This document shows, one piece after another, positions 1,639-33,800 of a stretch of 33,800 bases of DNA (positions within the stretch are counted from its first letter, which is position 1; each line of letters starts with the position of its first letter). The notes under the pieces were generated by a model. That model worked only from the letters and a program-made list of their open reading frames with translations. It did not search any database and was not told the DNA's origin. Source of the stretch: a virus (Duplodnaviria; Heunggongvirae; Uroviricota; Caudoviricetes); the IMG/VR virus record IMGVR_UViG_3300028561_000525, one strand, 5' to 3'. Made by a program: the position numbers and the translations under genes.

Positions 1639-1878
1639 CTATTTCTTATTCCACTTCTTTTCAAGATCTTCAAGAGGCTTCCAGAAATCGGCAATGGCTT
1701 TATTCATTGTCCTCTCAAATTCTTTCCATTCTGCTGTCCTAAGCATTTGTTTTGATTCTGCGGCGCGGAAGAGTATATTATCTACGCTATCTTCAAGATC
1801 GTTCATAAATTCTTCCAAAAATTCTATTTTGTCCATAATTGGAACATCTTCTGTCAATACTTTTCTGATTTTTGTCAT
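1639..1878 (-). CDS. Small acidic helical protein with N-terminal MTKIRKVLTE motif (candidate internal head protein)
   Basis: ORF track; N-terminus nearly identical to the next two genes. Confidence 0.7.
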   Translation of the reverse strand: MTKIRKVLTEDVPIMDKIEFLEEFMNDLEDSVDNILFRAAESKQMLRTAEWKEFERTMNKAIADFWKPLEDLEKKWNKK

Positions 1879-1882
1879 TTTA

Positions 1883-2125
1883 TTATTCCGCCTTGGCTAT
1901 TATTTCTACTATCCTGTCACAGGCCTTTTCTATTTGGCCTGCGGCTCTTCTCAAATCTTTCATATATTCATCTGCCTGATGTTTATATGCTGGTGGAATT
2001 TCGTTTATTGAAATTCCAGCGTCCTCTATTGTCTCATAAATTTGAGTTATCATAACACCGAATTCTTTGAAGAGATGTTTTGCTGTTCCCCGATCTTCCG
2101 TAAGAATTTTTCTTACCTTTGTCAT
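1883..2125 (-). CDS. Small protein with N-terminal MTKVRKILTE motif (candidate internal head protein)
   Basis: ORF track; paralogous N-terminus. Confidence 0.7.
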   Translation of the reverse strand: MTKVRKILTEDRGTAKHLFKEFGVMITQIYETIEDAGISINEIPPAYKHQADEYMKDLRRAAGQIEKACDRIVEIIAKAE

Positions 2126-2373
2126 TTTCTTTCTCCCTTGGCGATGAGATCCGTTATATTATTCATTTCGGCGATGATTGTATCAATATATTTTTCTATA
2201 TTTTTGATTTTCTTCTCCACATCTTTCAAGTCTTTATCTTCGAGATATTTGGGCGTTTCAACTCTCATACTGGAAATTATCTCATCAAAGGAGCCGATAA
2301 TATCATCAAGAACATTTGTATAGTATTTTGCCAGGCCTTTGCTTTCTGTCAGGTATTGTCTTACTTTACTCAT
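2122..2373 (-). CDS. Small protein with N-terminal MSKVRQYLTE motif (candidate internal head protein)
   Basis: ORF track; ATGA overlap; paralogous N-terminus. Confidence 0.7.
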   Translation of the reverse strand: MSKVRQYLTESKGLAKYYTNVLDDIIGSFDEIISSMRVETPKYLEDKDLKDVEKKIKNIEKYIDTIIAEMNNITDLIAKGERK

Positions 2374-2655
2374 TTATTCCTCCTCATCGTCCTCGTCTTT
2401 CCATCCTTTTCCACCCAAGAAAATTTTTGTATCCCCCGCATAACCCAGTTGAACATTTTGTCCTTCTTCCAATTCTATACCGATGACCCTTTTGATGAGA
2501 GCCTTGAAGCCACGCCAGTTCCCGTTGGAAACATATTTTTCCATTTCCTCGATTTCACTATTGGATGCGTTTTTATAAAATCTTACCATCTCCGAGAAGC
2601 CAATGTTCCCGGCATATACTGCTTCTTGGAGCGTAAGAAACGCTCTGTATTTCAT
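2374..2655 (-). CDS. Conserved phage hypothetical protein (..LQEAVYAGNIGFSEM..)
   Basis: ORF track; YAGNIG motif directly after an L-x-E site. Confidence 0.7.
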   Translation of the reverse strand: MKYRAFLTLQEAVYAGNIGFSEMVRFYKNASNSEIEEMEKYVSNGNWRGFKALIKRVIGIELEEGQNVQLGYAGDTKIFLGGKGWKDEDDEEE

Positions 2656-2846
2656 TTTTCCTCTTTGGACAGCCCGTATTCCACGAATATTTTCTTGATG
2701 TGATTTTCGATTTCGTGTGCCGTATCTGATCCCCTGCTTTTTGTTCTGTTATGAACGATGGTGTCACATATTTTAGCCAAACATATTATAGCAGTCATCA
2801 GACCTTTCAATGCTTTAGCTAATCCCTTTTTATTTATCTCGTTCAT
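2652..2846 (-). CDS. Hypothetical protein (64 aa)
   Basis: ORF track; ATGA overlaps on both sides. Confidence 0.6.
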   Translation of the reverse strand: MNEINKKGLAKALKGLMTAIICLAKICDTIVHNRTKSRGSDTAHEIENHIKKIFVEYGLSKEEK

Positions 2847-3154
2847 TTAATTTTACGAATGTAATCCCCGTGTTTAATATAAAACGACTTATTGTATCTT
2901 GATTTTTTCATAAATTGCTGAGCGGACGAGCCAGACTTAAATCTTATTCTTCTTCTACCGTGTGACATATTCTGGTAAAATTCGTCCTTGTCAACATTGA
3001 AAATGGGTAGATTGTCTCTCTGGTTGATACCGTCAGCTGACAATCCCTCAATATCTGGAATTGGAACTTGCTCCATTTTTCCATCAAACTTTGTATCCTG
3101 TTGCGCCGTTTGTTCAGGGGATACTGTTTCCTGACCCATAAATTCTCCGGGCAT
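2843..3154 (-). CDS. Hypothetical protein (103 aa)
   Basis: ORF track; GGAGGA SD upstream. Confidence 0.7.
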   Translation of the reverse strand: MPGEFMGQETVSPEQTAQQDTKFDGKMEQVPIPDIEGLSADGINQRDNLPIFNVDKDEFYQNMSHGRRRIRFKSGSSAQQFMKKSRYNKSFYIKHGDYIRKIK

Positions 3155-3163
3155 AAAATCCTC

Positions 3164-3544
3164 CTACATTCTTTTCTTTGTTTCTTCCTCTGTAAATTCT
3201 CCTGTGAGGAATTTTTTTAATAGCCTTCCAACTTTTTTTATGATACCTACTGGTTTCATTTCTACTGGTATTTCATCTGGAACAATTTCTAATAAAAGAC
3301 TTCCCCTTCCTTTCCCCAATTCGAAAGTGGATCTTCCCATTCTGTATTTTACTCTTATTTGTGGGTTCATTCGGAGGTAGTATGCCAAAAATACTTGCCT
3401 GCATCCTTTTCTCCTCAAAACCTCTATGAGATCGTCAAATTCTTCATTTACTTGATAAGGAACAACATTTTCATTTGTTAATCTATCATAGAAGAAAGTA
3501 GAAACAAAATCTGCGAATTGTGAGCTTGTAAGTTTTAATCTCAT
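3164..3544 (-). CDS. Hypothetical protein (126 aa)
   Basis: ORF track; ATGA overlap with the resolvase gene. Confidence 0.65.
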   Translation of the reverse strand: MRLKLTSSQFADFVSTFFYDRLTNENVVPYQVNEEFDDLIEVLRRKGCRQVFLAYYLRMNPQIRVKYRMGRSTFELGKGRGSLLLEIVPDEIPVEMKPVGIIKKVGRLLKKFLTGEFTEEETKKRM

Positions 3545-4065
3545 ATTATCTGTCTTATAATATCCGGTGTAGTCAATTCAAAAAATGATTTCATATCATA
3601 AAAAGCAATCGAGGGTGTTTCACTCTCAAAAAGAAGATGGACAGATTTTGGTAAATCCACCTTCACAACTTCCTTCAATTGAAATCTCGTATTACAGTTG
3701 ATGCCCACAATAATCGGAAAACCAAGCTTCCTGTATATTAGCATCGGTTTCTTCTCGGCCTTGGTGGCAGCCTCTACACATTGCAGCCAGAATTTCTCTA
3801 TATCAAAATTCTTGTTATCCTTCAAATGCTGATGAAAACTGGCTTTTGGATATCCTGTTTTCAATTCCACACTAAATCTGTCAGTAAAAAATGCTCCCTC
3901 TGGTCTGATGGCTATAATATCTCCGGATATTTCCTTATTCAACTCCGATATCGTTGCCATCCCACCCGATGACGGGGTTCTCCAAAAGACATATGGTTTT
4001 TCCTTACCAGTTAACCAGACCGTGAGAAACTTTGCTATCTCACGTTCAAATGCACCACCTTTCAT
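3541..4065 (-). CDS. Hjc-like PD-(D/E)XK Holliday junction resolvase
   Basis: KGGAFEREIA, SGDII, SVELK motifs of the Hjc/RusA-like phage resolvase family. Confidence 0.8.
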   Translation of the reverse strand: MKGGAFEREIAKFLTVWLTGKEKPYVFWRTPSSGGMATISELNKEISGDIIAIRPEGAFFTDRFSVELKTGYPKASFHQHLKDNKNFDIEKFWLQCVEAATKAEKKPMLIYRKLGFPIIVGINCNTRFQLKEVVKVDLPKSVHLLFESETPSIAFYDMKSFFELTTPDIIRQII

Positions 4066-4499
4066 ACAATTTCCTTATGGTAGTATTCCCATTCCCCTTC
4101 ATCTTTATTTATATCTTCTATGTCATCCAGCTCTTTCATTACATAATTCCAATCACCCGTGAACCTGATTGCCCTATCATCGATATAGGCGTTTGCTGGA
4201 ACCTTTATCATTGTGATAAAGTCATAAGGGATTTTCCACCTCTTGAGCCATTTCTCCATCAATCTGATGGCGCCTTCCGGATTGTCCGAGGCGAGGGGTC
4301 TGGATGTATGCACAAATATACAATAGCCCATATCTTTGAGCTTCAATAGAAATTCCCGTACTCCTTCTGTTGGTCTATCATATATTGAGCCGTCGTGGTA
4401 TTTCCTCGAATATTTGTGTATAACACCGTCAAAATCAATACAAATTCTTTTTCCATTGATGACGGTACTTTCATCGTCATCTTTCAATAACATATTCAT
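4062..4499 (-). CDS. HAD-superfamily phosphatase
   Basis: ICIDFDGVI (DxDG), VHTSR, K..YIDD motifs. Confidence 0.85.
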   Translation of the reverse strand: MNMLLKDDDESTVINGKRICIDFDGVIHKYSRKYHDGSIYDRPTEGVREFLLKLKDMGYCIFVHTSRPLASDNPEGAIRLMEKWLKRWKIPYDFITMIKVPANAYIDDRAIRFTGDWNYVMKELDDIEDINKDEGEWEYYHKEIV

Positions 4500-4651
4500 T
4501 CATTCTCCTTATCATCTTTTATATCAAAAACAATTTTTAATATCTTGGGTATCGGCTTTCCCTTTATTATAAGCCTTGCCGTTACAAGTGTTGAGGTAAA
4601 AAATACCATCATTATGACCCAAACGATAGCGGCAATCGTTGTGTCAGACAT
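4496..4651 (-). CDS. Small single-pass membrane protein (51 aa)
   Basis: Manual: MSDTTIAAIVWVIMMVFFTSTLVTARLIIKGKP...; AGGAGA SD; fills the gap and overlaps the HAD start. Confidence 0.6.
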   Translation of the reverse strand: MSDTTIAAIVWVIMMVFFTSTLVTARLIIKGKPIPKILKIVFDIKDDKENE

Positions 4652-4657
4652 ATCTCC

Positions 4658-4903
4658 TTAGTCGTTTTTAGCTACCGCCTTTTCTGCCTCTTTTCTTGTT
4701 TTACCTTTTCCTCTCCAAAAAGTAGATTTCCACGCCGTATCTTTGATTGATGCACAGTATGCTTCGGGATCATCGACTTTACCCTTCATTCTTCGAACAC
4801 ACGCATCGAAAAATCCCTCGTCTTTTGGAGAAAGACCTTCCTTCTCGGCCTCTGTCAAGAACTTTTCAAAAAAATAATCCCCGATGTATTTCCTCCACTT
4901 CAT
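4658..4903 (-). CDS. Hypothetical protein (MKWRKY...FLTE; two Cys)
   Basis: ORF track; ATGA overlap. Confidence 0.65.
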   Translation of the reverse strand: MKWRKYIGDYFFEKFLTEAEKEGLSPKDEGFFDACVRRMKGKVDDPEAYCASIKDTAWKSTFWRGKGKTRKEAEKAVAKND

Positions 4904-5184
4904 TTTTTCTTCTCCTTATATTTTCTACCACCCGTTTCTTCCGATTCTAACCAAGATTTCCACCCCTGATAGTAAGCGTCAGCGGAGCAATCGGCTTGTC
5001 CATACCAATTATAATCCTTGAAATGAAATTGCCACATCTTTCTGGAACCCATTTTGGTGCCGTGAACCCAGGCTTTCTTTATATCTTCTTTACCGAGAAC
5101 CTCTTTAACCCGTTCCAATACACCGCTTTTCATTGAACGGCAAAAACCGTGGCTATCCTCTGTTAGGTACTCTCTTATTTTCAT
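4900..5184 (-). CDS. Small protein with N-terminal MKIREYLTE motif
   Basis: Start reassigned to the ATG at 5184, which overlaps the stop of the glycosyltransferase. Confidence 0.65.
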   Translation of the reverse strand: MKIREYLTEDSHGFCRSMKSGVLERVKEVLGKEDIKKAWVHGTKMGSRKMWQFHFKDYNWYGQADCSADAYYQGWKSWLESEETGGRKYKEKKK

Positions 5185-5867
5185 TTCAAATAATATGTTT
5201 TTTCCTTTTCGTGACCTATCCTGATTTTCGATGCACACCACAAATCAATTCCAGCTTCTTTCAGTCTTACAAAGAGTGCCATATCCTCCGACATAAAGAA
5301 CACGGGTTTTCTAATCTTTTTATCAATTGAAAATACCGGCATAAACCAAGGATAGTCTATGCTTTCTATTACACCGGATCTCATTATACAGAAACCGAGG
5401 CCGGAGGCATCAACTTTTCCCAGTTCCGGTAATTCATCTACCTCAGCTGCCGTGAGGAGCCTCTGGCTTATAATACCGTTTGGATGTTTTGTAATACTAC
5501 AAATTGTAGACACATCAGACCTATCTTCCGCCACTCTTGGATAAACAGCTGTCAATGCCTTTATTTCTGGCCTTTCCCTCATAATTTGTAGCAGGGCATT
5601 GAAATCCTTTACTCTCCATTCCTGATCGCTATCAAACCACATTATGTAGTCGTATTTGAATTGACCCTGAAAAGGCTTCTGATTGGGCCCCAATTCAGGT
5701 TTGGCGCCTAAACATTGATTTCTCACCTGATACACATTTGCTCCGGTTGCCCAATTGACAATAAAGGGCATTTCCTGTTTACGACATTCTATTATCGTAT
5801 TAGTCCAGCTTCTCATAAATCGGTAGCTGAACTGTTTTCCCGGCACACAAAACACAATTGTTTCCAT
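5181..5867 (-). CDS. Glycosyltransferase, GT-A fold (GT2-like)
   Basis: IVFCVPG, RNQCL, YIMWFDSD (DxD), SGLGFCIMR, MSEDMALF...IGHEK. Confidence 0.75.
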   Translation of the reverse strand: METIVFCVPGKQFSYRFMRSWTNTIIECRKQEMPFIVNWATGANVYQVRNQCLGAKPELGPNQKPFQGQFKYDYIMWFDSDQEWRVKDFNALLQIMRERPEIKALTAVYPRVAEDRSDVSTICSITKHPNGIISQRLLTAAEVDELPELGKVDASGLGFCIMRSGVIESIDYPWFMPVFSIDKKIRKPVFFMSEDMALFVRLKEAGIDLWCASKIRIGHEKEKTYYLK

Positions 5868-5893
5868 TAGCCCTCACATCTGGATTATTCTTT

Positions 5894-6202
5894 TTAGGTG
5901 TAATATTTCTTTATAATCTTATTTACAACTTTGCTCATCGTAAGATTTGGTGGGCCGCCTTTAAGTTTACCGTATTCTTCCGTATCAAATTTCAAAACTA
6001 TTCTTTTGCCGCCCTGTGCTTTTACAAATTTCTTGATATATTTGAACTCGTCACTCTTAGGATTTTCTTCGTATGCAGAAATTATCGCATCTGTAAGTTC
6101 TTTGTTTCCTTCAATCTCGTATGTATCGTGACCAATTTTGTCCGCAGTATATGACGAACCTTCTGTAATATACTTTTCTATTGTTTTATCAATCTTTTTC
6201 AT
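5894..6202 (-). CDS. Small protein with N-terminal MKKIDKTIEKYITE motif
   Basis: ORF track; start overlaps the MazG stop (TGATG). Confidence 0.65.
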   Translation of the reverse strand: MKKIDKTIEKYITEGSSYTADKIGHDTYEIEGNKELTDAIISAYEENPKSDEFKYIKKFVKAQGGKRIVLKFDTEEYGKLKGGPPNLTMSKVVNKIIKKYYT

Positions 6203-6513
6203 CAGCAAGTCTTACCTCCGTGGCGATATGGTCGTGTCATATTATATTTATGTTTCTTTTCGACACTTTCCGATATATCTATACCAAGCGCTCCACACAT
6301 ATCCCATATACGGATAACCAAATCCGAAAGTTCCTCACTCAAACAGCCACTCTCCCCTTCCGGTATCTTGTTCCTGTATGCTTCGAGTGCCTCAGATATT
6401 TCACTATGTAAAAGACATAATAATTCTGGTATCGGTCTGTCCTGATCCCACCATCCCTTTTCCACAGCCAGACTGTGTATTTCTTCCGGGCTAACAATTT
6501 CAATCTTTTTCAT
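6202..6513 (-). CDS. MazG-like NTP pyrophosphohydrolase
   Basis: LLHSEISEALEA...EELSDLVIRIWD...KHKYNMTRPYRHGGK; start trimmed to MKKIEIVSPEE. Confidence 0.85.
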   Translation of the reverse strand: MKKIEIVSPEEIHSLAVEKGWWDQDRPIPELLCLLHSEISEALEAYRNKIPEGESGCLSEELSDLVIRIWDMCGALGIDISESVEKKHKYNMTRPYRHGGKTC

Positions 6514-15116: not shown

Positions 15117-15479
15117 GGGGGTGCACAGGCTTCGACAGAGGTTTTGGTACTTCAGGCGCACGCCGGAGATAATCATCGGCTCCGTTATCAACTGATTATC
15201 ATATAAGCGCAGACTACAGTTATAGTTACGCAATGGCGGCTTAGTTAACCGCCCACAATTTTCATACTCTCCTCTCCATCGGGGTTGGAAATTGTTCAAA
15301 TCAATGGGGAGCCGGGAAAATAGGTTGTTTCGCCTATTTCACGGTAATAAAGAAACTGGATTTGATGTATCGGTTTTCTGTTAGGAGCATCGAATTGACC
15401 GCAACAAACAGAGAAGCGTGTAATTCACCTGATTTATCGGGGCTTTTGGACGCCGGTTCGATTCCGGCCACCTCCACCA
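15117..15479 (+). ncRNA. ssrA: tmRNA; tag (A)ADYSYSYAMAA*
   Basis: 5' GGGGGTG pairs with 3' CACCTCC-ACCA (G3:U); T arm GCCGGTTCGATTCCGGC; resume context TATAAGC-GCA at 15209; tag ORF 15209-15244 ends AA-TAG. Confidence 0.92.
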
Positions 15480-15540
15480 TAAATAACAATGAGGGGGTCA
15501 TATAATGAAGGGCGAGCGATTCTTTTCATAGAATCTTGCC

Positions 15541-15590
15541 AAAGGGCAGTATAAGCCCCCTACGAAGTAAAGGAGATACTGCCCTTTTTT
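15541..15590 (+). terminator. Intrinsic terminator after tmRNA
   Basis: AAAGGGCAGTAT / ATACTGCCCTTT 12-bp stem plus T run. Confidence 0.7.
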
Positions 15591-15628
15591 ATTGCGTAAG
15601 TCATTGAAATTATTGAGAAACATTTTTC

Positions 15629-15657
15629 TTGACAGGGATACCGTATTATGATATGAT
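15629..15657 (+). promoter_or_regulatory. Promoter TTGACA-N17-TATGAT
   Basis: Near-consensus sigma70 promoter upstream of a structured RNA and tRNA-Asn. Confidence 0.7.
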
Positions 15658-15679
15658 ATGTCGTATTCTTTGAAAATTT

Positions 15680-15870
15680 AGAGGGTAGTAGAGATGAACT
15701 TGTTGCGGCAAGTTGAACGAACTCGTAAGGAACAGAGGAACCGCCATTCCATCTGTTCGCCCTCTTTATTATAATCCGTGGGTTGTCACCGTTTCCTGTC
15801 CTGACAACATCTGGCCTCGCCGCCGTGGAGCCACCCCAGCGAGGGAATAACTGGTGGCCAGCAGGAAACA
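15680..15870 (+). ncRNA. Unidentified structured RNA(s) upstream of tRNA-Asn
   Basis: GAGGG/CCCTC, AACTTG/CAAGTT, GTTGTCA/TGACAAC, GTTTCCTG/CAGGAAAC, CCTCGC/GCGAGG stems; GC-rich. Confidence 0.45.
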
Positions 15871-15873
15871 CAT

Positions 15874-15947
15874 TCCGGTATGGTGAAACGGTATCACGAA
15901 TGGCTGTTAACCATTAGTTATTGGTTCGATTCCATTTACCGGAGCCA
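15874..15947 (+). tRNA. tRNA-Asn(GTT)
   Basis: Cloverleaf; AATGG-CTGTTAA-CCATT; CCA end. Confidence 0.9.
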
Positions 15948-15957
15948 GAAAAAATTG

Positions 15958-15986
15958 TTTACATTCTATGTAAACTGTGTTATAAT
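15958..15986 (+). promoter_or_regulatory. Promoter TTTACA-N17-TATAAT upstream of the main tRNA array
   Basis: TTTACAttctatgtaaactgtgtTATAAT. Confidence 0.75.
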
Positions 15987-16025
15987 TTACATATATAATA
16001 TTGACATATAATTTCAGAGGATTCT

Positions 16026-16121
16026 ATGACGAAATATTTTCTACATAAAGATTGTTGGTTTTATTTAGTGCCGAGCCTTGCGATTGAAACAAAGCCAGCA
16101 GAGGGGGGCACTATAGAATAG
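16026..16121 (+). CDS. Candidate 31-aa leader peptide MTKYFLHKDCWFYLVPSLAIETKPAEGGTIE
   Basis: AGAGGA SD; lies between the promoter and a terminator. Confidence 0.4.
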   Translation: MTKYFLHKDCWFYLVPSLAIETKPAEGGTIE

Positions 16122-16152
16122 AAGAGTCAAATCCTATAGAGTAGAATTATTG

Positions 16153-16188
16153 AAGGGAGATTGGGTTTTGACTCAATCTCCCTTTTTT
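16153..16188 (+). terminator. Strong intrinsic terminator or attenuator before the tRNA array
   Basis: 14-bp stem AAGGGAGATTGGGT / ACTCAATCTCCCTT, TTTG loop, T run. Confidence 0.75.
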
Positions 16189-16210
16189 GTTTTTGTTCTT
16201 TGAAAAATAT

Positions 16211-16286
16211 CGGAGAGTGGCGCAGATGGTAGCGTGCTTGACTTGGGATCAAGAAGTCGCAGGTTCAAATCCTGTCTCTCCGACCA
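16211..16286 (+). tRNA. tRNA-Pro(TGG)
   Basis: Cloverleaf; CTTGA-CTTGGGA-TCAAG; CCA. Confidence 0.92.
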
Positions 16287-16289
16287 GAA

Positions 16290-16363
16290 TGTAGATTGGC
16301 GTCCGGAATTATTACTGTTACAAATGGGGGCGTCACCTCGTAACAGGGTAATGTCAATCTACA
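16290..16363 (+). ncRNA. Structured hairpin RNA, family A copy 1
   Basis: TGTAGATTGGC...GTCAATCTACA closing stem; homologous to 16918-17032. Confidence 0.55.
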
Positions 16364-16368
16364 CAAAA

Positions 16369-16512
16369 TATAGAGGTTGTGAGTGGAAACACTTCATCGA
16401 ATGTCAGCCTGAGGCCGGGCTGACCTGTAGCCTGATTGCAAGGGATACGAAGTAGATAAGAGTTAGACACATATTACATAGTATACGATGTATATGCTAC
16501 AACCTCTTTATA
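16369..16512 (+). ncRNA. Multibranched structured RNA
   Basis: AGAGGTTGT/ACAACCTCT closing stem, GAGTG-GAAA-CACTT, GTCAGCC/GGCTGAC. Confidence 0.45.
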
Positions 16513-16513
16513 T

Positions 16514-16589
16514 AGCCGGTTAGCTCAATTGGGAGAGCATCACGTTTACACCGTGAGGGCCGGGGGTTCAATTCCCTCACCGGCTACCA
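16514..16589 (+). tRNA. tRNA-Val(TAC)
   Basis: Cloverleaf; TCACG-TTTACAC-CGTGA; CCA. Confidence 0.92.
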
Positions 16590-16597
16590 GAAAATAT

Positions 16598-16732
16598 AGG
16601 TGTAAACAAGGTAGTCCGGAACGCCTTGGTCAGTTCGTCTAATGGATAGGACAACTTTGAGGAAGTAAATTCGTCGCGCGGCGGACACTTCCATAAAGGA
16701 AATGTGGGTTCAACTCCCACCTGACAACACCT
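16598..16732 (+). ncRNA. tRNA-like RNA with D and T arms but an extended anticodon arm
   Basis: GTCT-AATGGATA-GGAC D arm, GTGGG-TTCAACT-CCCAC T arm, 36-nt structured insert in place of the anticodon loop, extra closing stem AGGTGT/ACACCT. Confidence 0.55.
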
Positions 16733-16824
16733 CTATGAATTACTCATATAGGCGGTAAGAGCCCTATATGTAATGGTGTGGTAATGAGTGAGGATAACCA
16801 CAACGAAAACACCTTACTCACTAT

Positions 16825-16900
16825 AGAATCGTAGCTCAGTTGGGAGAGCGTTGCCCTGACACGGCAAAGGTCGTGGGTTCAACTCCCGCCGATTCTACCA
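16825..16900 (+). tRNA. tRNA-Val(GAC)
   Basis: Cloverleaf; TTGCC-CTGACAC-GGCAA; CCA. Confidence 0.92.
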
Positions 16901-16917
16901 TCTTTGAAAACAGAATA

Positions 16918-17032
16918 TACAGATTGGCGCTCGAGATTATTTCTGTGACTATATTGAATCTATGACGAGCCGCCGGCCGGAAACCGGGAGTGCGCGGTAG
17001 AGTGATTAGGAATGGGATAATGTCAATCTGTA
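16918..17032 (+). ncRNA. Structured hairpin RNA, family A copy 2
   Basis: TACAGATTGGC...GTCAATCTGTA closing stem with compensatory changes relative to copy 1. Confidence 0.55.
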
Positions 17033-17041
17033 AAAAAATGT

Positions 17042-17113
17042 CGTGGTGATTGCAGAAATGTGAGGAGGAAGCCGGATAAAACTTATGTCCAATACCGGCC
17101 ATCACCACGCCCA
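17042..17113 (+). ncRNA. tRNA-sized RNA with a 9-bp terminal stem and CCA, no canonical loops
   Basis: CGTGGTGAT/ATCACCACG-C-CCA; internal GCCGG/CCGGC. Confidence 0.4.
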
Positions 17114-17123
17114 GAAAAAATAT

Positions 17124-17200
17124 GGGGCGTTAGCTCACTATGGGAGAGCATCTCGCTTGCACCGAGAAGGCAGAGAGTTCGAATCTCTCACGCTCCACCA
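17124..17200 (+). tRNA. tRNA-Ala(TGC)
   Basis: Cloverleaf; G3:U70; CCA. Confidence 0.92.
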
Positions 17201-17204
17201 AAAT

Positions 17205-17284
17205 ATCCCGGTGATGCTGGTATCGAATCCAGCACGATGTATAACATCGTTAGAATAAGGTTCCTTCAATTCCCCGGGCGGGAT
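17205..17284 (+). ncRNA. Permuted tRNA-like RNA (T arm, closed acceptor hairpin, D arm; YrlA-like topology)
   Basis: GCTGG-TATCGAAT-CCAGC, ACGATG-TATAA-CATCGT, TA-GAA-TAAGGTTCC-TTC, closed by ATCCCG/CGGGAT. Confidence 0.4.
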
Positions 17285-17287
17285 TTT

Positions 17288-17360
17288 CGCGGGTAAGATT
17301 GGTATCTCGCCATGGCTCATAACCAAGGTTCAGGGGGTTCGATTCCCTCACCCGCTACCA
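17288..17360 (+). tRNA. tRNA-Met(CAT), atypical (C1:U72 mismatch, shortened D arm)
   Basis: Acceptor CGCGGGT/ACCCGCT, CTCATAA loop, T arm, CCA. Confidence 0.7.
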
Positions 17361-17367
17361 AAAACAC

Positions 17368-17457
17368 GGGAGATGTTCCCCACGGCGGTCTGTAAAACCG
17401 TTGTCTATAATTATGTGGGGCGGCAGACGGGTGGTTCAACTCCTCCATCTCCCACCA
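17368..17457 (+). tRNA. tRNA-Tyr(GTA), atypical (no local D hairpin, enlarged variable arm)
   Basis: GGGAGAT/ATCTCCC acceptor, GCGGT-CTGTAAA-ACCGT, T arm, CCA. Confidence 0.7.
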
Positions 17458-17465
17458 AAATATAT

Positions 17466-17542
17466 GGTGGCAGAAGCCAAATGGTGAGGCACAGGGTTGT
17501 GGCCCCTGTAAGGAGCGGGTTCGATTCCCGTCTGTCACCCCA
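17466..17542 (+). tRNA. tRNA-His(GTG)
   Basis: G-1:C73; CAGGG-TTGTGGC-CCCTG; CCA. Confidence 0.92.
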
Positions 17543-17546
17543 AAAA

Positions 17547-17660
17547 TAGATGGTGATATAGTAGTATCAGTAACGGTTGATAGTATTGTGGGCTTCTACT
17601 AAAGCTTGGTCACACAAGAGGGTAAACACCGTCCAGTAGGGTTGGAAACCTACCCATCTA
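17547..17660 (+). ncRNA. tRNA-like RNA with a non-canonical central arm
   Basis: TAGATGG/CCATCTA closing stem, TATCA-GTAACGGT-TGATA D-like arm, GTAGG..CCTAC T-like arm. Confidence 0.45.
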
Positions 17661-17666
17661 TAGAAT

Positions 17667-17742
17667 GGCCTTGTAGCTTAGTAGCCAGAGCACTTGACTG
17701 TCAATCAAGTAGGCGTGGGTGCAACTCCCATCAAGGTCGCCA
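17667..17742 (+). tRNA. tRNA-Asp(GTC)
   Basis: Cloverleaf; CTTGA-CTGTCAA-TCAAG; A18/G55 variant; CCA. Confidence 0.88.
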
Positions 17743-17873
17743 GAACTTGGTGGTACTCTTCCATCACGCCATAGGGAACGGAACGGGAAATCATAACCGT
17801 TCATCAACCTATGGAAAGAGAGAACCGTGAAAATCGGTTCTGTGTAGATGACTTGCAAGCATCTACACTTAAT

Positions 17874-17949
17874 GGGCTCGTGGCCAAATAGCTAAGGCGA
17901 CGGTCTGCAAAACCGTAGATTGTGGGTGCAATTCCCATCGGGCCCTCCA
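17874..17949 (+). tRNA. tRNA-Cys(GCA)
   Basis: Cloverleaf; ACGGT-CTGCAAA-ACCGT; U73; A18/G55 variant; CCA. Confidence 0.88.
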
Positions 17950-17957
17950 GAAAATAT

Positions 17958-18028
17958 GGGAGATGTGGGTTAAAGCCCCACCGGATGCCGCGGTAATCCG
18001 TAGGTTAATGAGAATAAACCGCCCTCCA
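17958..18028 (+). ncRNA. Degenerate tRNA-like element ending in CCA
   Basis: GGGAG.../CCCTCCA, GGG-TTAAAG-CCC, CGGA/TCCG; no valid anticodon loop. Confidence 0.35.
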
Positions 18029-18034
18029 AAATAT

Positions 18035-18112
18035 AGACCCGTAGGCGAAACGGATTATGCCGCCACCCTTTCAAGGTGGAGATTGCGAGTTCAAATCTCG
18101 TCGGGTCTACCA
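18035..18112 (+). tRNA. tRNA-Glu(TTC)
   Basis: Cloverleaf; CCACC-CTTTCAA-GGTGG; CCA. Confidence 0.88.
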
Positions 18113-18116
18113 TATA

Positions 18117-18230
18117 TGGGATGTGAGCTACGATGTTGGTAAGGCCTGAAGGGGCACTCTATAGGGATGCCAACTTTTTATCCCTATAAAATAGTGATGC
18201 CAGTAGGTATAATCCTACCACATCCCACGA
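18117..18230 (+). ncRNA. tRNA-like RNA with a long central arm
   Basis: TGGGATGTG/CACATCCCA, GTAGG-TATAAT-CCTAC, GGCA..TGCC enclosing TATAGGGA/TCCCTATA. Confidence 0.5.
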
Positions 18231-18235
18231 AATAT

Positions 18236-18310
18236 GAGGTCGTAGCTCAACGGTAGAGCAACTGGCTTTTAACCAGTAGGTTGAGGGTTCAATTCCCTTC
18301 GGCTTCACCA
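18236..18310 (+). tRNA. tRNA-Lys(TTT)
   Basis: Cloverleaf; ACTGG-CTTTTAA-CCAGT; CCA. Confidence 0.92.
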
Positions 18311-18319
18311 AAAATATGT

Positions 18320-18395
18320 GGGTATGTAGCAAAGTGGCAAATGCAATCGGCTCTTAACCGATAGAGCGCAGGTTCAAATCCTGTCATACCCACCA
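18320..18395 (+). tRNA. tRNA-Lys(CTT)
   Basis: Cloverleaf; ATCGG-CTCTTAA-CCGAT; CCA. Confidence 0.92.
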
Positions 18396-18402
18396 AAAAT
18401 AA

Positions 18403-18493
18403 AGTTGTATCAAAGGCAAACGTATGTGCCGATTAGTGGTCTGAAGCTCCGTCATTTGGCGGTGGTGGACGGTTCAATTCCGTTGATACAATT
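18403..18493 (+). ncRNA. tRNA-like element (acceptor, T arm, variable arm) without a valid anticodon arm or CCA
   Basis: TTGTATCA/TGATACAA, GACGG-TTCAATT-CCGTT, CCGTCA-TT-TGGCGG. Confidence 0.4.
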
Positions 18494-18505
18494 TTTATAA
18501 AATAC

Positions 18506-18581
18506 GGGTCTTTGGTGTAAACGCAAACACACTTGTCTCCAAAACAAGCAGATGAGGGTTGAAATCCTTCAAGGCCCGCCA
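18506..18581 (+). tRNA. tRNA-Trp(CCA)
   Basis: Cloverleaf; CTTGT-CTCCAAA-ACAAG; C19/G56 variant; CCA. Confidence 0.88.
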
Positions 18582-18651
18582 TAAAAAGTGTCGAAAGAGG
18601 CACAGAAGGTCGAGAGATTTTCGACATACTATGCCTAATTATACAATTTTT

Positions 18652-18726
18652 GCTCCCATCGTCTAATGGTTAGGACGCTGGCCTCTCACGCCGGAAATAT
18701 GAGTTCAAATCTCTTTGGGAGTACCA
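18652..18726 (+). tRNA. tRNA-Glu(CTC)
   Basis: Cloverleaf; CTGGC-CTCTCAC-GCCGG; CCA. Confidence 0.9.
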
Positions 18727-18737
18727 GAGGAAAGAAT

Positions 18738-19031
18738 ATGTATCACGATTTTTACATATACAAAAATGTAAGACCGAATGGTAACCTCATGAAAATACAA
18801 GTCATCAAGGAGTTGAGGTCTGTGCTTTCTCTTGGTCTGAAAGAAGCAAAAGACATTGTTGACTTTATGGATACTATCACGGGAACCAATAGTTTGTCAT
18901 ACAGGGTAAATATGACGAAGGAACAGGCATTACAATTAAAAGATTTGGGTTTTAGTATCTGGTACGCGAGTACGGGGAAGGTAGTAACTGCTGAGGAATT
19001 TTTACCGGATGAATTATTTGTAATTGAATAG
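18738..19031 (+). CDS. Protein with a ribosomal bL12 C-terminal-domain motif
   Basis: KIQVIKELRSVLSLGLKEAKDIVD matches the bL12 KI.VIK.VR.IT.LGLKEAKDLVE motif; GAGGA SD. Confidence 0.7.
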   Translation: MYHDFYIYKNVRPNGNLMKIQVIKELRSVLSLGLKEAKDIVDFMDTITGTNSLSYRVNMTKEQALQLKDLGFSIWYASTGKVVTAEEFLPDELFVIE

Positions 19032-19034
19032 AAT

Positions 19035-19110
19035 GGGGCGTTAGCTCAGTTGGGAGAGCACAAGGCTGGCAGTCTTGGGGTCGAGAGTTCAAGTCTCTCA
19101 CGCTCCACCA
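19035..19110 (+). tRNA. tRNA-Ala(GGC)
   Basis: Cloverleaf; G3:U70; CCA. Confidence 0.92.
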
Positions 19111-19120
19111 AGGATTGAAA

Positions 19121-19696
19121 ATGGGAAGAACATTTATAACAGCGGATACTCACTTCGGTCACGAAGATATGATTGGTTTCTGCAACAGGCCTTTCAAGAC
19201 CGTGGAAAAGATGGATAGGGTTTTGATAAGGAACTGGAACGAAAGGGTGAAACCAAAGGACACCGTTATATTTGTTGGAGATTTTGCTTTCAATGAATGT
19301 AACAGAGTGGATTATTATATTGAGAGGCTGAATGGTGACAAGGTTTTTATCAGGGGAAACCACGATAAAAACAACGGGCTCAAGACAAAAATTGAGAATC
19401 TCACTTTGAGAAACGGAAATAATCTTTTGTATTGTGTCCACGATCCAAGACACATAAACAGGGATATCAATATCAACCTTGTTGCTCACGTTCACTTGAA
19501 TTGGAGAGCAAAGTGGATAACTTGGAATGATACAAAAAGAGGAAATATCCTCATCAATGTAGGTGTTGATTGGTGGAAATTTTATCCGGTTGAATTACAG
19601 GAGATAATGGCTTTTGTAAATCATATCAAGAAAAATTTTCCAACATTGAATTATAACTACAATGATTGGATAAGACCTTATAAAGAGGAAAGGTAA
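19121..19696 (+). CDS. Calcineurin-like metallophosphoesterase
   Basis: ADTHFGH, VGDF, RGNHD, HDP, AHVH, NVGVD. Confidence 0.9.
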   Translation: MGRTFITADTHFGHEDMIGFCNRPFKTVEKMDRVLIRNWNERVKPKDTVIFVGDFAFNECNRVDYYIERLNGDKVFIRGNHDKNNGLKTKIENLTLRNGNNLLYCVHDPRHINRDININLVAHVHLNWRAKWITWNDTKRGNILINVGVDWWKFYPVELQEIMAFVNHIKKNFPTLNYNYNDWIRPYKEER

Positions 19697-19701
19697 ATAA
19701 A

Positions 19702-20478
19702 ATGTTAGGACTACCAAGTGATTACAAGTTATTGTTCAGGACTGTAGCCGGAAGTCATCTTTACGGAACCGCAACGGAAACTTCTGATGTGGATGAAAGG
19801 GGTGTGTTCCTTGCACCGGAAAGATACTGGCTCGGCTTTCTTGACAGGGTTGAACAGGTTGAGGATAAGAAACAGGACAAGGTTTTTTATGAGTTCAGAA
19901 AGTTCCTGAAACTTACTCTTGACTGTAACCCGAATATGGTCGAGTTGCTTTTTGTTCCTGAAGATAAATGGTTGAACCATTCTGATGAGTGGTTTGATGT
20001 TCTGAAAGTGAGAGATGCTTTTCTTTCCAAGAAAGCAAAACACACTTTCTCAGGATATGCTCATTCTCAGCTCAAGAGGTTGAAGAACCATAAAAGATGG
20101 ATGGACGGTTTTGTTCCTACCGATAAATCCGAAAGGGAAGCATGGGAACTCTGGAAGAAAAACAGAAATCCCGAAAGATTTGCCCTTGAGGAAAAGTTTG
20201 GGTATGATACGAAACACGCTGCCCATCTGATGAGATTGATGTATGAAGGTAAGGAACTGTTACTTACCGGAAATCTTACTTTTCCAAGACCGGAAGCAGA
20301 GTTTCTTGTTTTTTTGAGAAACGGATACTGGTCTTACGATGAGTTGATGGAGAATGTTTCCAAGTTTGATGAGGACTTTGAAAGGTGGTATGAGTTATCT
20401 CCACTTCCTCATTCTCCTGACAGAGTAAGAGTAAACGAACTCTGTATGGATGTTGCAAGGAGACTATTATTGAAATAA
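19702..20478 (+). CDS. Nucleotidyltransferase (Nuc-transf/RlaP-like family)
   Basis: VAGSHLYG...SDVDERGVF, CNPNMVELLF, GYAHSQLKR, GYDTKHAAHLMRL. Confidence 0.85.
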   Translation: MLGLPSDYKLLFRTVAGSHLYGTATETSDVDERGVFLAPERYWLGFLDRVEQVEDKKQDKVFYEFRKFLKLTLDCNPNMVELLFVPEDKWLNHSDEWFDVLKVRDAFLSKKAKHTFSGYAHSQLKRLKNHKRWMDGFVPTDKSEREAWELWKKNRNPERFALEEKFGYDTKHAAHLMRLMYEGKELLLTGNLTFPRPEAEFLVFLRNGYWSYDELMENVSKFDEDFERWYELSPLPHSPDRVRVNELCMDVARRLLLK

Positions 20479-20581
20479 CGGGTTTGAGGGGATGCCCCGC
20501 TGACCATTCCTACAAGGAATGGGGAGGCTCATCAGGTTAGTCCTCATGGCTGCCGTGGATGGGAGCCCGTATAGAACAAAG

Positions 20582-20647
20582 TTCCCGCTCGGGAATAATT
20601 CGGTTCTTTTCGGAAGAAATGTTATCGGTTATTCCCGCTCGGGAATA
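20582..20647 (+). repeat. Two copies of the palindrome TTCCCG-CT-CGGGAATA
   Basis: Identical 16-mers at 20582-20597 and 20632-20647. Confidence 0.8.
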
Positions 20648-20649
20648 TT

Positions 20650-20726
20650 GGAGATGTAGCTCAGTAGGTAGTAGCGCTTGCCTGAAGAGCAAGAGGTCGG
20701 CGGTTCAATTCCGCCTGTCTCCACCA
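20650..20726 (+). tRNA. tRNA-Phe(GAA)
   Basis: Cloverleaf; CTTGC-CTGAAGA-GCAAG; CCA. Confidence 0.92.
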
Positions 20727-20728
20727 AT

Positions 20729-20804
20729 GCCGGAATAGCGCAACTGGAAACGCAGGTCTTTCGTAAGGACAAGATTATCGGTTCAAATCCGATTTCCGGC
20801 TCCA
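20729..20804 (+). tRNA. tRNA-Thr(CGT)
   Basis: GCCGGAA/TTCCGGC acceptor; TTCGTAA loop; CCA. Confidence 0.85.
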
Positions 20805-20812
20805 ATAAATAT

Positions 20813-20889
20813 ATGGGGTCTGGTATGGACTGGCTATGAGAAGCAAGGCTCAAATGCCGAAGCCCGTTAGATTCGGGCGCCCCATTCCA
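20813..20889 (+). ncRNA. tRNA-like element with CCA and a non-canonical anticodon arm
   Basis: ATGGGGT/GCCCCAT-T-CCA, GCCCG-TTAGATT-CGGGC. Confidence 0.45.
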
Positions 20890-20896
20890 GAATAAT

Positions 20897-20979
20897 GCCG
20901 ATGTCGCCTAATGGTATGGCAGCTGATTTGTAATCAGCCGGAGAAATCTGTGGGGGTTCGATTCCCTCCATCGGCTCCA
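20897..20979 (+). tRNA. tRNA-Thr(TGT) with a long variable arm
   Basis: GCTGA-TTTGTAA-TCAGC; 13-nt variable region GGA-GAAA-TCT; CCA. Confidence 0.88.
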
Positions 20980-20987
20980 GAAAATAT

Positions 20988-21062
20988 GCGGATGTAACTC
21001 AACGGTAGAGTATCTCGTTGCCATCGAGAAGGTTGACGGTTCAAATCCGTTCATCCGCTCCA
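20988..21062 (+). tRNA. tRNA-Gly(GCC)
   Basis: Cloverleaf; U73; CCA. Confidence 0.92.
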
Positions 21063-21070
21063 AAATTTAT

Positions 21071-21148
21071 GCCGGTGTGATGGAACTTGGCATACATACT
21101 GCGCTTAGAACGCAGGTTTTCGGGGTTCAACTCCCTGCACCGGCACCA
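21071..21148 (+). tRNA. tRNA-Leu(TAG), short variable loop
   Basis: CTGCG-CTTAGAA-CGCAG; A73; CCA. Confidence 0.88.
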
Positions 21149-21172
21149 TAAATATATAGAAGTAAAACAGAT

Positions 21173-21748
21173 ATGGCCGAGACAAGAAAAGCAAGAAAGA
21201 GAAGGCACGAAGAGGGATTTTTCCAGAAGTATTGTAATGGAAGAGGTATTGATATAGGTTGTGGTAATGACCCCATTCTTCCGGATGTGGATATGTGGGA
21301 TCTATCCATCAGTAAAGATCACGATGCAACTTATATGAAAGGTATTCCGGACAATACTTATGACTTCGTATATTCGTCACATTGCCTTGAGGATTTGGAA
21401 AAACCGGATGTGGCAATAAAGAACTGGTGGAGAATATTGAGAGATGATGGATATCTCATTATTTTTGTTCCTCATCGTGATTTATTCGAATTGAGAAGGA
21501 CACTACCTTCTGCTGGTAATGCAAATCACAAATGGTTCTTTGTGATTGATAAAAATGAGCCGCCAGTTACAATAGGATTGATACCATTTATTATTGACAA
21601 TCTTACGGATTATGATATAATTTATGTGAAGAAGTGTGACGATAACTACAGTTATTACATAAAAGATAACAGATATGTAATAGCGGCCGGGGAGTTTTCC
21701 ATCGAGGCGGTTATCAGAAAAGGAAATAAAACAAAGTTTATAGATTAG
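21173..21748 (+). CDS. Class I SAM-dependent methyltransferase
   Basis: GIDIGCG, YDFVYSSHCLEDL, WWRILRDDGYLIIFVP. Confidence 0.88.
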   Translation: MAETRKARKRRHEEGFFQKYCNGRGIDIGCGNDPILPDVDMWDLSISKDHDATYMKGIPDNTYDFVYSSHCLEDLEKPDVAIKNWWRILRDDGYLIIFVPHRDLFELRRTLPSAGNANHKWFFVIDKNEPPVTIGLIPFIIDNLTDYDIIYVKKCDDNYSYYIKDNRYVIAAGEFSIEAVIRKGNKTKFID

Positions 21749-21826
21749 CCGGAGTGAAGGGAATTAGGCATACCTTCCTGACTTAAAATTAGGAGTGTGG
21801 GAGTTCGACTCTCCCCTCCGGCACCA
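21748..21826 (+). tRNA. tRNA-Leu(TAA), short variable loop
   Basis: CCTGA-CTTAAAA-TTAGG; A73; CCA. Confidence 0.88.
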
Positions 21827-21828
21827 AT

Positions 21829-21914
21829 GGGGAAGTGGTGTAATAGCAGCCACGCAAGTCTGAGGGGCTTGTGCTCGAAAGGGCGTGTAGGTGCAAATCC
21901 TACCTTCCTCACCA
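21829..21914 (+). tRNA. tRNA-Leu(GAG)
   Basis: CAAGT-CTGAGGG-GCTTG; long variable arm; A18/G55 variant; CCA. Confidence 0.88.
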
Positions 21915-21919
21915 GAAAT

Positions 21920-22033
21920 ATCGGGGTATCGTGTCAGCGATAATGGAAGTGGGTTTCATAGACCGCCTTGACCTGACAGAAAAGAGGATGGTTGACCCTA
22001 ACCTATGAAACGGGCGTGACCCCGTTCCCCGAT
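21920..22033 (+). ncRNA. tRNA-like RNA with a long central arm
   Basis: ATCGGGG/CCCCGAT, TATCG/CGATA, GTTTCATAG/CTATGAAAC, AACGG/CCGTT. Confidence 0.45.
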
Positions 22034-22042
22034 TGAAAATAT

Positions 22043-22117: not shown

Positions 22118-22131
22118 ATATTGGAGTTATT

Positions 22132-22475: not shown

Positions 22476-22479
22476 GAAA

Positions 22480-28236: not shown

Positions 28237-29106
28237 ATGGAAACAAAACTAAGACGATATCTAACAGAAACATTCAGGGGTAGAATATTGATGATCTCTA
28301 TGAAAAGCACGGTGGTCGATTTTCTGAGAGAACATTTTGAAAATATAGTTGACTGTAAATGGACTGATATTGTCTTTGAAGAGGATATATTGATCCGGGG
28401 CGAGAGTTTGGGGAGTTATAATTTTGTAATAGTCGGCTACGGGGATCATATTAATATGGCATCTACCGTTATAAATTATTTGAAATTACATAACATAAGA
28501 TATCTCTGTTACGGAAAAGGCTCGAATGAAACCAGTAAGATTTCTCAGAACTCAAAATTTGAGGAGATGTCAATTCCACAACCTAAAACTATTATTTCTT
28601 CAAAAATGAAAACATCGTCCGAGGAACTATTCTCAAAATTGGGTTTGCCGGTTGTGGTCAAGTCTCTTGATACTGCACGAGGAGAAGGTGTGTCAAAGAT
28701 AGATAAGAGGTTTCAACTTGACAAATTTCTTTCTATGGGTAATAAAGAGGACTTTTTCATATTCCAAGAATTTATACCCAATGATGGGGATATTAGGGTC
28801 TTTTTCTTCAGAGGTCAAATACTCTACTCTATAAAAAGAAAAAGTTCCTCGCCAAAGGAATTCAGAAATAATATTTCTTTGGGCGGGAAACAGGAATATA
28901 TTGACAAACTTCCACCGGAAGTAGAAGATCTTGCTATTAAAGTCGATAGGATATTCAATCTCGATTTCGCCGGGGTTGATATTGTACAGAATAAGAAAAC
29001 TGGTGAATGGTTGGTATTCGAAATTAATCCCGCTCCCCAATTTTTTGGTGATGAAAAATATGTAATTCCTGTAATCATTGATTATATCAATAGAGGAAAT
29101 ATATGA
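28237..29106 (+). CDS. RimK-like ATP-grasp ligase with N-terminal METKLRRYLTE motif
   Basis: PVVVKSL...RGEGV, FQEFIP..GDIRV, EFRNNISLGG, FAGVDI, FEINPAP; AAGGAG SD before ATG 28237. Confidence 0.9.
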   Translation: METKLRRYLTETFRGRILMISMKSTVVDFLREHFENIVDCKWTDIVFEEDILIRGESLGSYNFVIVGYGDHINMASTVINYLKLHNIRYLCYGKGSNETSKISQNSKFEEMSIPQPKTIISSKMKTSSEELFSKLGLPVVVKSLDTARGEGVSKIDKRFQLDKFLSMGNKEDFFIFQEFIPNDGDIRVFFFRGQILYSIKRKSSSPKEFRNNISLGGKQEYIDKLPPEVEDLAIKVDRIFNLDFAGVDIVQNKKTGEWLVFEINPAPQFFGDEKYVIPVIIDYINRGNI

Positions 29107-32813: not shown

Positions 32814-33101
32814 ATGTCAAGAATAGAAAAGAGGCTCGATGAGGCCAGAAAGATGATTACCGACAGGATGGTGGACAGACTTGCGGCGGGGATCCAAGAT
32901 TTCTATGAAAAAGAAGCGAAAAAGATTGATGCCAAGATAGTAGCAATGGTTCACAAAGCCAGGAAAGAGCTCGGTCTGAAGAAAACGCCATATCTGGAAA
33001 TGGATTATTATGGCTCTTTATTTGAACTTGCCAATTCACAGGATGTAAGGCAAGAGTTGAGAAGTATGATTTATGACGAAGTGGAAGATGAGGAATATTG
33101 A
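32814..33101 (+). CDS. Small acidic protein, paralog A (MSRIEKRLDE...)
   Basis: Shares VHKARK.LGL, YYGS and SQDVRQ.LR.MI with the next gene. Confidence 0.75.
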   Translation: MSRIEKRLDEARKMITDRMVDRLAAGIQDFYEKEAKKIDAKIVAMVHKARKELGLKKTPYLEMDYYGSLFELANSQDVRQELRSMIYDEVEDEEY

Positions 33102-33112
33102 GGAGAGAATAT

Positions 33113-33379
33113 ATGCCAAAAGGACGAGAAATTACAGAAAGAGAGATAGATGATTACGCGGCTGATATTCAAGAGGCCTTTGAAGAAATGGCTCAGGTAC
33201 TCGATGATAAGCTGGTAAAACTGGTTCACAAAGCGAGAAAACAACTTGGACTTCCAAGAAGGGATATGGAAGTGGGTTATTATGGTTCTGCATACGAGCA
33301 CGCGACTTCACAGGATGTAAGACAGGCGCTAAGAGATATGATTTTTGATGAAATGGAAGATGAACAGGACGAGTATTGA
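33113..33379 (+). CDS. Small acidic protein, paralog B (MPKGREITE...)
   Basis: AGGAG SD; paralog of the previous gene. Confidence 0.75.
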   Translation: MPKGREITEREIDDYAADIQEAFEEMAQVLDDKLVKLVHKARKQLGLPRRDMEVGYYGSAYEHATSQDVRQALRDMIFDEMEDEQDEY

Positions 33380-33800
33380 TGAGGCTCAAAAGATATCTCA
33401 AAGAAGAGTTTATTGGTACATACAAATATGGTGGGAAGTTTACGGAGGTCTACAGAAACCCAAATCCCAATGAAATAAGGTTTATGCCCACCATATATCA
33501 GGAACCAAATCATCCGGAACTTATGGATTGTTCCATCAGGTTTCTTGCCCTCGGCTCAAAACAGAAACTCTTTATATGGGCATCTGAAGGCGGTGTTCAT
33601 TATTATGTCCTTGAATGGCTAATGAAAAAAGGTGAAATACCGGAGGATGTGTATGGTCAGGAACCGGCCGACATTGTTTCTGGATATGCCTCACCACAGG
33701 GTAGCAGGATGAAATTTGAGAGGGGATACGGTCTTGGAACCCGTGGCTACGATATTTCCAGAGATGTATGGCATTGGCTCGGAAAATATTTCGTCAATAT
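33379..33800 (+). CDS. Hypothetical protein with N-terminal MRLKRYLKE motif (runs off the window)
   Basis: Manual translation: MRLKRYLKEEFIGTYKYGGKFTEVYRNPNPNE..., open to the window end; TGATG overlap. Confidence 0.7.
   Translation, partial: MRLKRYLKEEFIGTYKYGGKFTEVYRNPNPNEIRFMPTIYQEPNHPELMDCSIRFLALGSKQKLFIWASEGGVHYYVLEWLMKKGEIPEDVYGQEPADIVSGYASPQGSRMKFERGYGLGTRGYDISRDVWHWLGKYFVN

Follow-up and report, generated by a model that had tools for sequence, protein, structure and literature searches.

Bacteriophage T4 loads internal proteins (IPs) into its capsid, trims them and injects them with its DNA, and marks them for this with a short capsid-targeting sequence (CTS) at their N-termini. The cleavage rule of the protease gp21 is a cut after L/I-x-E; propeptides of the IPs measure 10-19 residues, and within the CTS residues 4 and 7 serve targeting while residues 8 and 10 serve processing (PMC9026906). 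The same enzyme removes a 65-residue peptide from gp23 and a 10-residue peptide from gp24 (PMC9958956). Here we describe a family of N-terminal leaders with the form of a CTS in a stretch of viral DNA of 33,800 nucleotides (the window), which forms the right-hand third of a 97,322-bp viral contig in IMG/VR (G000; CheckV completeness 47%). From sequence comparisons and a structural model, we think it probable that this common N-terminus is a capsid-targeting leader of the T4 type, cleaved as a propeptide by the head protease of the phage.

The cut sites in the T4 record are GSFLTE65/AE in gp23, MAKINELLRE10/S in gp24, MKTYQEFIAE/A in IPII and IPIII, and ..TITE/A in IPI. The starting point of the original prediction, that gp21 cuts the internal-protein CTS MKTYQEFIAE after (I/L)-x-E, agrees with this record and with the literature (PMC9026906). 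The leaders described here resemble the CTSs of IPII, IPIII and IPI in lying at the extreme N-terminus, in spanning 9-19 residues, in their MK start and in placing [L/I]-x-E before the presumed cut. By inspection, their hydrophobic and aromatic residues are also spaced as T4 positions 4 and 7. In both cases the carriers are otherwise unrelated, mostly small proteins of a T4-like phage with a gp21-type protease, and the leader genes lie around a tRNA cluster, as the T4 IP genes flank that of T4. The Y-L-T-E of the leader is nearly identical to the gp23 site, although gp23 and gp24 are structural shell proteins whereas the cargo here is non-structural. Unlike the T4 CTS, the leader is basic (K/R-x-Y-L-T/K-E) and appears on about 25-30 proteins rather than 3-4. 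Its carriers, known from sequence alone, include enzymes, namely a RimK-like ligase, a cupin and a nucleotidyltransferase-DUF6267 fusion.

Two further systems offer partial parallels. The T4 ADP-ribosyltransferase Alt sets a precedent, as an enzyme that is packaged in the head, processed by gp21 and injected (PMC9958956, PMC9026906), but Alt is also trimmed at its C-terminus, and among the carriers tested we detected no such enzyme. In phiKZ, SPN3US and 201phi2-1, many head-internal proteins, including ejection and inner-body proteins, are cut after Glu by a gp21-related protease (PMC9026906). There, in contrast to the leaders in the window, the residue at -2 is S or A rather than L or I, and the propeptides are long and non-uniform, with no short common leader described.

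A leader shared by otherwise unrelated genes

The original prediction singled out eleven gene starts in the window that begin alike, and all eleven are real ATG starts of open frames, correct in coordinate and strand. Nine share the leader. The other two, at 32814 (..KRLDE/A) and 33113 (..REITE/R), have only a weak motif that lacks the aromatic/basic core, and both were dropped. Their products are mutual paralogues (55% identity), and the 33113 start reads ..EITD in a strain 98.7% identical to the window region, so that the Glu is lost. The claim of at least 11 carriers therefore failed for two of the named genes, but the family as a whole is larger than claimed, as motif matches indicate about nine carriers in the window and roughly 25-30 across a genome of ~210 kb.

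The leader follows the consensus M-(x)-K-[ILV]-[KR]-x-[YVI]-[LI]-[TK]-E. Every accepted member has L or I at -2 and E at 0, which is the gp21 consensus [L/I]-x-E. The main form also has I, V or L at -6 and Y, V, I or F at -3, with the Glu at residue 9-11; in two variants the Glu lies at residues 14 and 18. We scanned all six-frame open reading frames (ORFs) of at least 40 residues on the whole 97-kb contig (98,551 residues) for the strict core [KR]-x-[YVIF]-[LI]-[TKR]-E and found nine matches, eight of which sit 2-4 residues past the initiator Met. The motif build and contig-wide scan that had been suggested earlier were run as a position matrix trained on the nine leaders. The ten top scores were all N-terminal, with a steep fall in score below them, and included MKMKKYLSE, which lay outside the training set. 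A linked half of the genome, described below, provided 117,595 residues that played no part in defining the motif, and there 7 of 11 strict-core matches were N-terminal. In both data sets the motif is thus commoner at N-termini than at internal positions, as the original prediction required.

The carriers were also predicted to be otherwise unrelated, and this description holds. When the bodies were stripped of their leaders and compared all against all by BLAST, no similarity was found, within the tandem trio at 1639-2373 or elsewhere, apart from the rejected 32814/33113 pair and a marginal match between the genes at 1883 and 2122 (E = 0.008). The leader is better conserved than the bodies, with 8-9 of 10 residues identical, and genes neighbouring the leader genes lack the motif.

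Comparison with homologues and a structural model indicate that the leader is an add-on, absent from cellular and cyanophage relatives of the cargo. Cellular homologues of the ATP-grasp ligase encoded in the window begin directly at the first strand, whereas homologues of its phage clade (41-44% identity) have 9-16-residue leaders of their own of the [L]-x-E kind, such as MKLRNFLAE, MRFKDLLLE and MKHLSLFLE. In an AlphaFold2 model of the ligase (mean predicted local distance difference test score, pLDDT, 85.9), the first strand starts at residue 17, and residues 1-10 form an isolated helix outside the fold (pLDDT 46). An alignment of the protein with PDB sequences revealed no N-terminal extension that was evident by itself. 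The DUF6267 and nucleotidyltransferase cargo behaves similarly: the homologues in cyanophage P-HM2 have no leader and begin with the conserved core, and leader variants are found on those of Methylophilales phage Melnitz-3 and on many environmental copies.

Head genes and the predicted capsid maturation site

The clamp loader encoded in the minus-strand block of the window, a gp44 homologue (phrog_168, 3e-65), is ~34% identical to those of its nearest cultured phages. Because these are T4-like without exception, the sequence places the phage in a deep-branching, uncultured T4-like group. A megablast search of the region against cultured phages gave no match. No gp21 or gp23 homologue was found on the window's own 97-kb contig, as is accounted for by that contig being a 47% fragment.

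A look-up of the exact ATP-grasp protein showed that the phage has been assembled in many samples. One such assembly, a 111.5-kb Joint Genome Institute contig, matches the window region at 98.7% identity over 12.8 kb (window ~18237-31010) and at 77% over the last 2.8 kb. Through five further look-ups along this contig and a second one of 60.5 kb, both were found to continue into IMG/VR record G010 (101,855 bp) at 99.98-100% identity. G010 had first been picked up through carrying the same leader, before the contigs were walked. Since the walk joins the window region to G010, the genome is ~210 kb long. The 60.5-kb contig physically connects leader genes (MRLKGYLVE, MKLKDYIRE) with the portal gene.

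The head genes of G010 stand in T4 order: the portal (phrog_213, 2e-101), small core-position genes, a 211-residue gp21-type protease of the Peptidase_S77 family (PF03420, 4e-28; phrog_207, 7e-58), the scaffold and a gp23-type capsid protein (PF07068, 1e-83). The genes between portal and protease, which occupy the positions of T4 gp67 and gp68, themselves start MKFRNFVKE/N (831 amino acids), ..MKRYLME/A and ..DMYLKE/G. Other carriers in G010 are a cupin and a 596-residue fusion of a cytidylyltransferase-like domain (the nucleotidyltransferase mentioned above) with DUF6267.

The capsid protein of G010 reads ..ENEYKYLTE44/AGNW at the last [L/I]-x-E ahead of its conserved ..VRR..P.LIA.D core. The end of the leader, [KR]-Y-L-T-E, is the same as this predicted maturation site, K-Y-L-T-E/A. 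When the -1 residue of the leader was compared with the capsid-protein sites in five genomes, no strict covariation was seen.

To survey other phages, we ran a degenerate DNA pattern for MK-x-[KR]-x-YLTE over IMG/VR. It matched 68 loci, most of them at the ORF starts of unrelated proteins. Some of these were set aside as ordinary helix-turn-helix (XRE) proteins that start MKLKxYLTE by chance, and an earlier DNA pattern was abandoned after matching mostly an unrelated family of 42 residues. All five leader-bearing records that are at least 85% complete, one of which is this phage, encode both PF03420 and PF07068. In five further leader-bearing records no gp21 was found, but these are 28-70% fragments and hence uninformative. 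The leader recurs in distant phages with guanine-cytosine (GC) contents of 28-45%. The flanks of six gp44 relatives contained no strict-core leaders; a relative at 63% identity has variant leaders of the MRLKSYIIE type. In our literature search, whose coverage was incomplete, we found no paper linking a CTS to uncultured or cyanophage-type T4-like phages and none on such leaders outside the T-even group.

Putative promoters bear on when the carriers are made. A T4-late-promoter-like box, CATAAATA, at 6245..6252 on the minus strand lies 42 nucleotides upstream of the 6202 start and could drive the run of genes 6202-5184-4903. Late-promoter-like boxes (ATAAATA) of the form CATAAATA or AATAAATA were found 17-42 nucleotides upstream of five leader genes of the contig, and head and tail genes of G010 have TATAAATA and CATAAATA boxes upstream. 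This pattern suggests that at least some carriers are transcribed late.

Capsid targeting and its alternatives

The presence of a gp21-type protease within a head module of T4 order, the match to the capsid-protein site, the leader-like starts inside that module and the add-on nature of the leader all favour the capsid-targeting, propeptide role first proposed for it. By analogy with the T4 internal proteins, it is probable that the leader proteins are taken up into the capsid, trimmed and injected together with the DNA. The leader, as a short amphipathic helix, would dock its cargo onto the scaffolding core during prohead assembly; the hydrophobic residues of the helix at -6, -3 and -2 are the counterparts of T4 CTS residues 4, 7 and 8. 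The gp21-type serine protease would then cut after the leader Glu, by the same [L/I]-x-E rule that it would apply to the capsid protein, and the trimmed cargo would be retained alongside the DNA inside the head, to pass into the host upon infection. Our inference covers docking, cleavage, packaging and injection, as well as any role of the cargo as early effectors.

Several points weigh against this interpretation. The head module comes from near-identical strains of other samples rather than from the window's own contig, and the cut site of the capsid protein was deduced from its position. The leader is more basic than that of T4 (K/R at -5/-4 versus Q-E) and too short for any homology test, and the family is known here from sequence and structure prediction alone. 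Some of the putative cargo is large (596 and 831 residues). Most leader genes have early or replication genes as neighbours, the evidence for late promoters is limited to five genes, and the promoter consensus lacks experimental calibration. Finally, the phage ClpP and several peptide-ligase or ubiquitin-like-system enzymes could in principle read an N-terminal tag.

This last point leads to the first alternative, in which the leader addresses the carriers to other machinery, either as a degron for the phage ClpP or a host protease or as a recognition peptide for a peptide-modifying enzyme, so that they would be destroyed or modified at a set time. The linked genome does encode candidates for such a role: ClpP (PF00574), two ATP-grasp ligases, Amidoligase_2, and ThiF and JAB proteins. 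However, one of these supposed modifying enzymes, the ATP-grasp ligase, itself bears the leader, and the leader is also present on genes inside the head module. Its end coincides with the predicted maturation site of the capsid protein and fits the gp21 rule, and gp21 accompanies it in each of the five near-complete records. We therefore regard dedicated degradation or modification as unlikely.

Alternatively, the leader might be a relic of common descent or recombination, spread by tandem duplication and leader-mediated gene shuffling, with no present role in targeting or cleavage. Several carriers are indeed arranged in tandem (1878/2125/2373 and the array of MRLK.. genes), and some are true paralogues. 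Such a history fits poorly with a leader that keeps 8-9 of 10 residues on bodies of no detectable similarity, that is restricted to N-termini, that is found on folds as unrelated as ATP-grasp, cupin and nucleotidyltransferase-DUF6267, and that recurs in phages distant enough to span 28-45% GC; we consider it quite improbable. That the signal acts in the RNA at the coding start, as a translational operator or enhancer, is very improbable indeed: T4 translational repressors do bind initiation regions and all carriers have A-rich codons after the ATG, but the leader Leu is written with five codons (TTG, CTT, CTG, CTA and CTC), the Thr, Glu, Ile and Val positions vary synonymously or conservatively and the upstream regions are unlike each other, and because the codons vary in this way conservation is at the level of the peptide.

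If the leader is a capsid-targeting signal, its scale matters. We propose, tentatively, that it marks an injected set of about 25-30 proteins including enzymes, and that MK-[FLI]-[KR]-x-Y-L-T-E is a code common to many uncultured T4-like lineages. If so, the number of cargo types would be an order of magnitude above that of T4, and one could read injected proteomes straight from metagenomic sequence. Phage proteins injected with the DNA act ahead of any phage gene expression and are prime counter-defence candidates; T4 IPI, for instance, counters the GmrSD defence system. A loading tag that is readable from sequence would allow candidate injected proteins of uncultured phages, which proteomics cannot find, to be listed from metagenomes. 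It would also guide the search, among ORFans, for new activities in anti-defence or host takeover and supply alternative loading tags for protein delivery by phage capsids.

Examples of possible anti-defence cargo come from unrelated low-GC phage contigs, in which MSKIRNYLTE and MKIREYLTE stand on proteins of the S-adenosylmethionine lyase/DUF3293 families (L022:388-1029 on the minus strand; L058:4985-5542 on the plus strand). Such proteins would be candidates for injected anti-restriction enzymes. In other phages, leader proteins that contain ..DCxPYLKE..LYRG were considered as ADP-ribosyltransferases, a reading that found no Pfam support and was dropped.

Leader genes and their surroundings

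Seven of the cargo genes in the window encode small ORFans and one encodes a RimK-like ATP-grasp ligase; the remaining one is where a further array begins. For most cargo proteins, neither PHROGs nor Pfam yielded a function. On the minus strand, a tandem trio encodes ORFans of 79 residues (1639..1878; MTKIRKVLTE/D; no Pfam family), 80 residues (1883..2125; MTKVRKILTE/D) and 83 residues (2122..2373; MSKVRQYLTE/S; the top matrix score). Beside it, at 2374..2655 (-), a 93-residue ORFan has the variant leader MKYRAFLTLQE/A, which matches [L/I]-x-E and falls outside the strict core. The other three on this strand are basic ORFans. That at 4658..4903 (81 residues) has an 18-residue leader, MKWRKYI...FLTE/A, comparable to the 19-residue leader of T4 IPI. 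The next, at 4900..5184 (94 residues), starts MKIREYLTE/D, and its start codon and the stop codon of the gene upstream overlap in ATGA. The last, at 5894..6202 (102 residues), has a 14-residue leader ending KYITE/G.

The ATP-grasp gene lies on the plus strand at 28237..29106 and encodes 289 residues (PF08443, 4.9e-21) starting METKLRRYLTE/T. A shared stretch of 15 nucleotides, CGCCAAGGGAGAAAG, stands before both the 2125 and the 28237 starts (window 2126-2147 and 28215-28236), and the copy at 28237 overlaps the CCA end of a tRNA-Ser gene. The sharing may reflect chance together with a common ribosome-binding site, or it may be a recombination scar.

Near the right edge, the two small plus-strand genes at 32814..33379 (95 and 88 residues), which have the weak motif rejected above, are probably not leader-bearing. 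They are followed by a gene for a 154-residue ORFan with the leader MRLKRYLKE/E (33379..33800, +), which extends 43 nucleotides beyond the window. With it begins an array of about eight leader genes, all co-oriented, that runs past the window's right edge (L130:15095-20868), with the leaders MRLKRYLKE, MRLKKYLQE, MRLSGFINE, MRLKKYLKE (twice), MRLKGYLVE and MKLKDYIRE. Homologues of the 154-residue array family were found in this phage population only. The array is broken by a gene similar to CCA-adding enzymes and poly(A) polymerases and by a Peptidase_C39 gene. Window positions 31100-33800, which hold E1/JAB genes, the small genes that follow them and the start of the array, are locally hypervariable, with 77% identity to the strain from another sample. 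Elsewhere on the contig, in G000 coordinates, further members start at 16120 (MKMKKYLSE), 16410 (MKLKQYIKE), 18761 (MKIKRYLTE), 51521 (MKFEHYLNE) and 52447 (MKLQQYIRE).

Mobile elements and inserted genes were seen at several places in the linked sequences. In G010, an IS605/OrfB (TnpB-like) element and a resolvase/MerR-like gene lie between the protease and scaffold genes (L144:6800-8820; G010 42.8-44.8 kb), and a similar element in another strain interrupts an amidoligase region beside the ATP-grasp gene (L134:3268-5122). The family-B DNA polymerase is split by a GIY-YIG homing-endonuclease gene and followed by the ClpP gene and a second, 454-residue ATP-grasp ligase (L138:14264-18136).

Genes in the left half of the window lie on the minus strand and those in the right half on the plus strand. 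Besides the clamp loader, the minus-strand block contains T4-type replication genes for a sliding clamp (gp45), a gp32-type single-strand DNA-binding protein, an exonuclease and a RusA-like resolvase. Between the two divergent blocks, window positions 15117-28223 carry 31 tRNA genes and a transfer-messenger RNA gene, whose tag peptide is ADYSYSYAMAA. Within this array, an ORF of 97 residues at 18738-19031 (+) was assigned to Pfam Ribosomal_L12 in the precomputed annotation of a near-identical contig, and it would encode a phage bL12-like protein. Immediately upstream of this ORF, other strains have a gene for a class-I aminoacyl-tRNA synthetase (tRNA-synt_1c).

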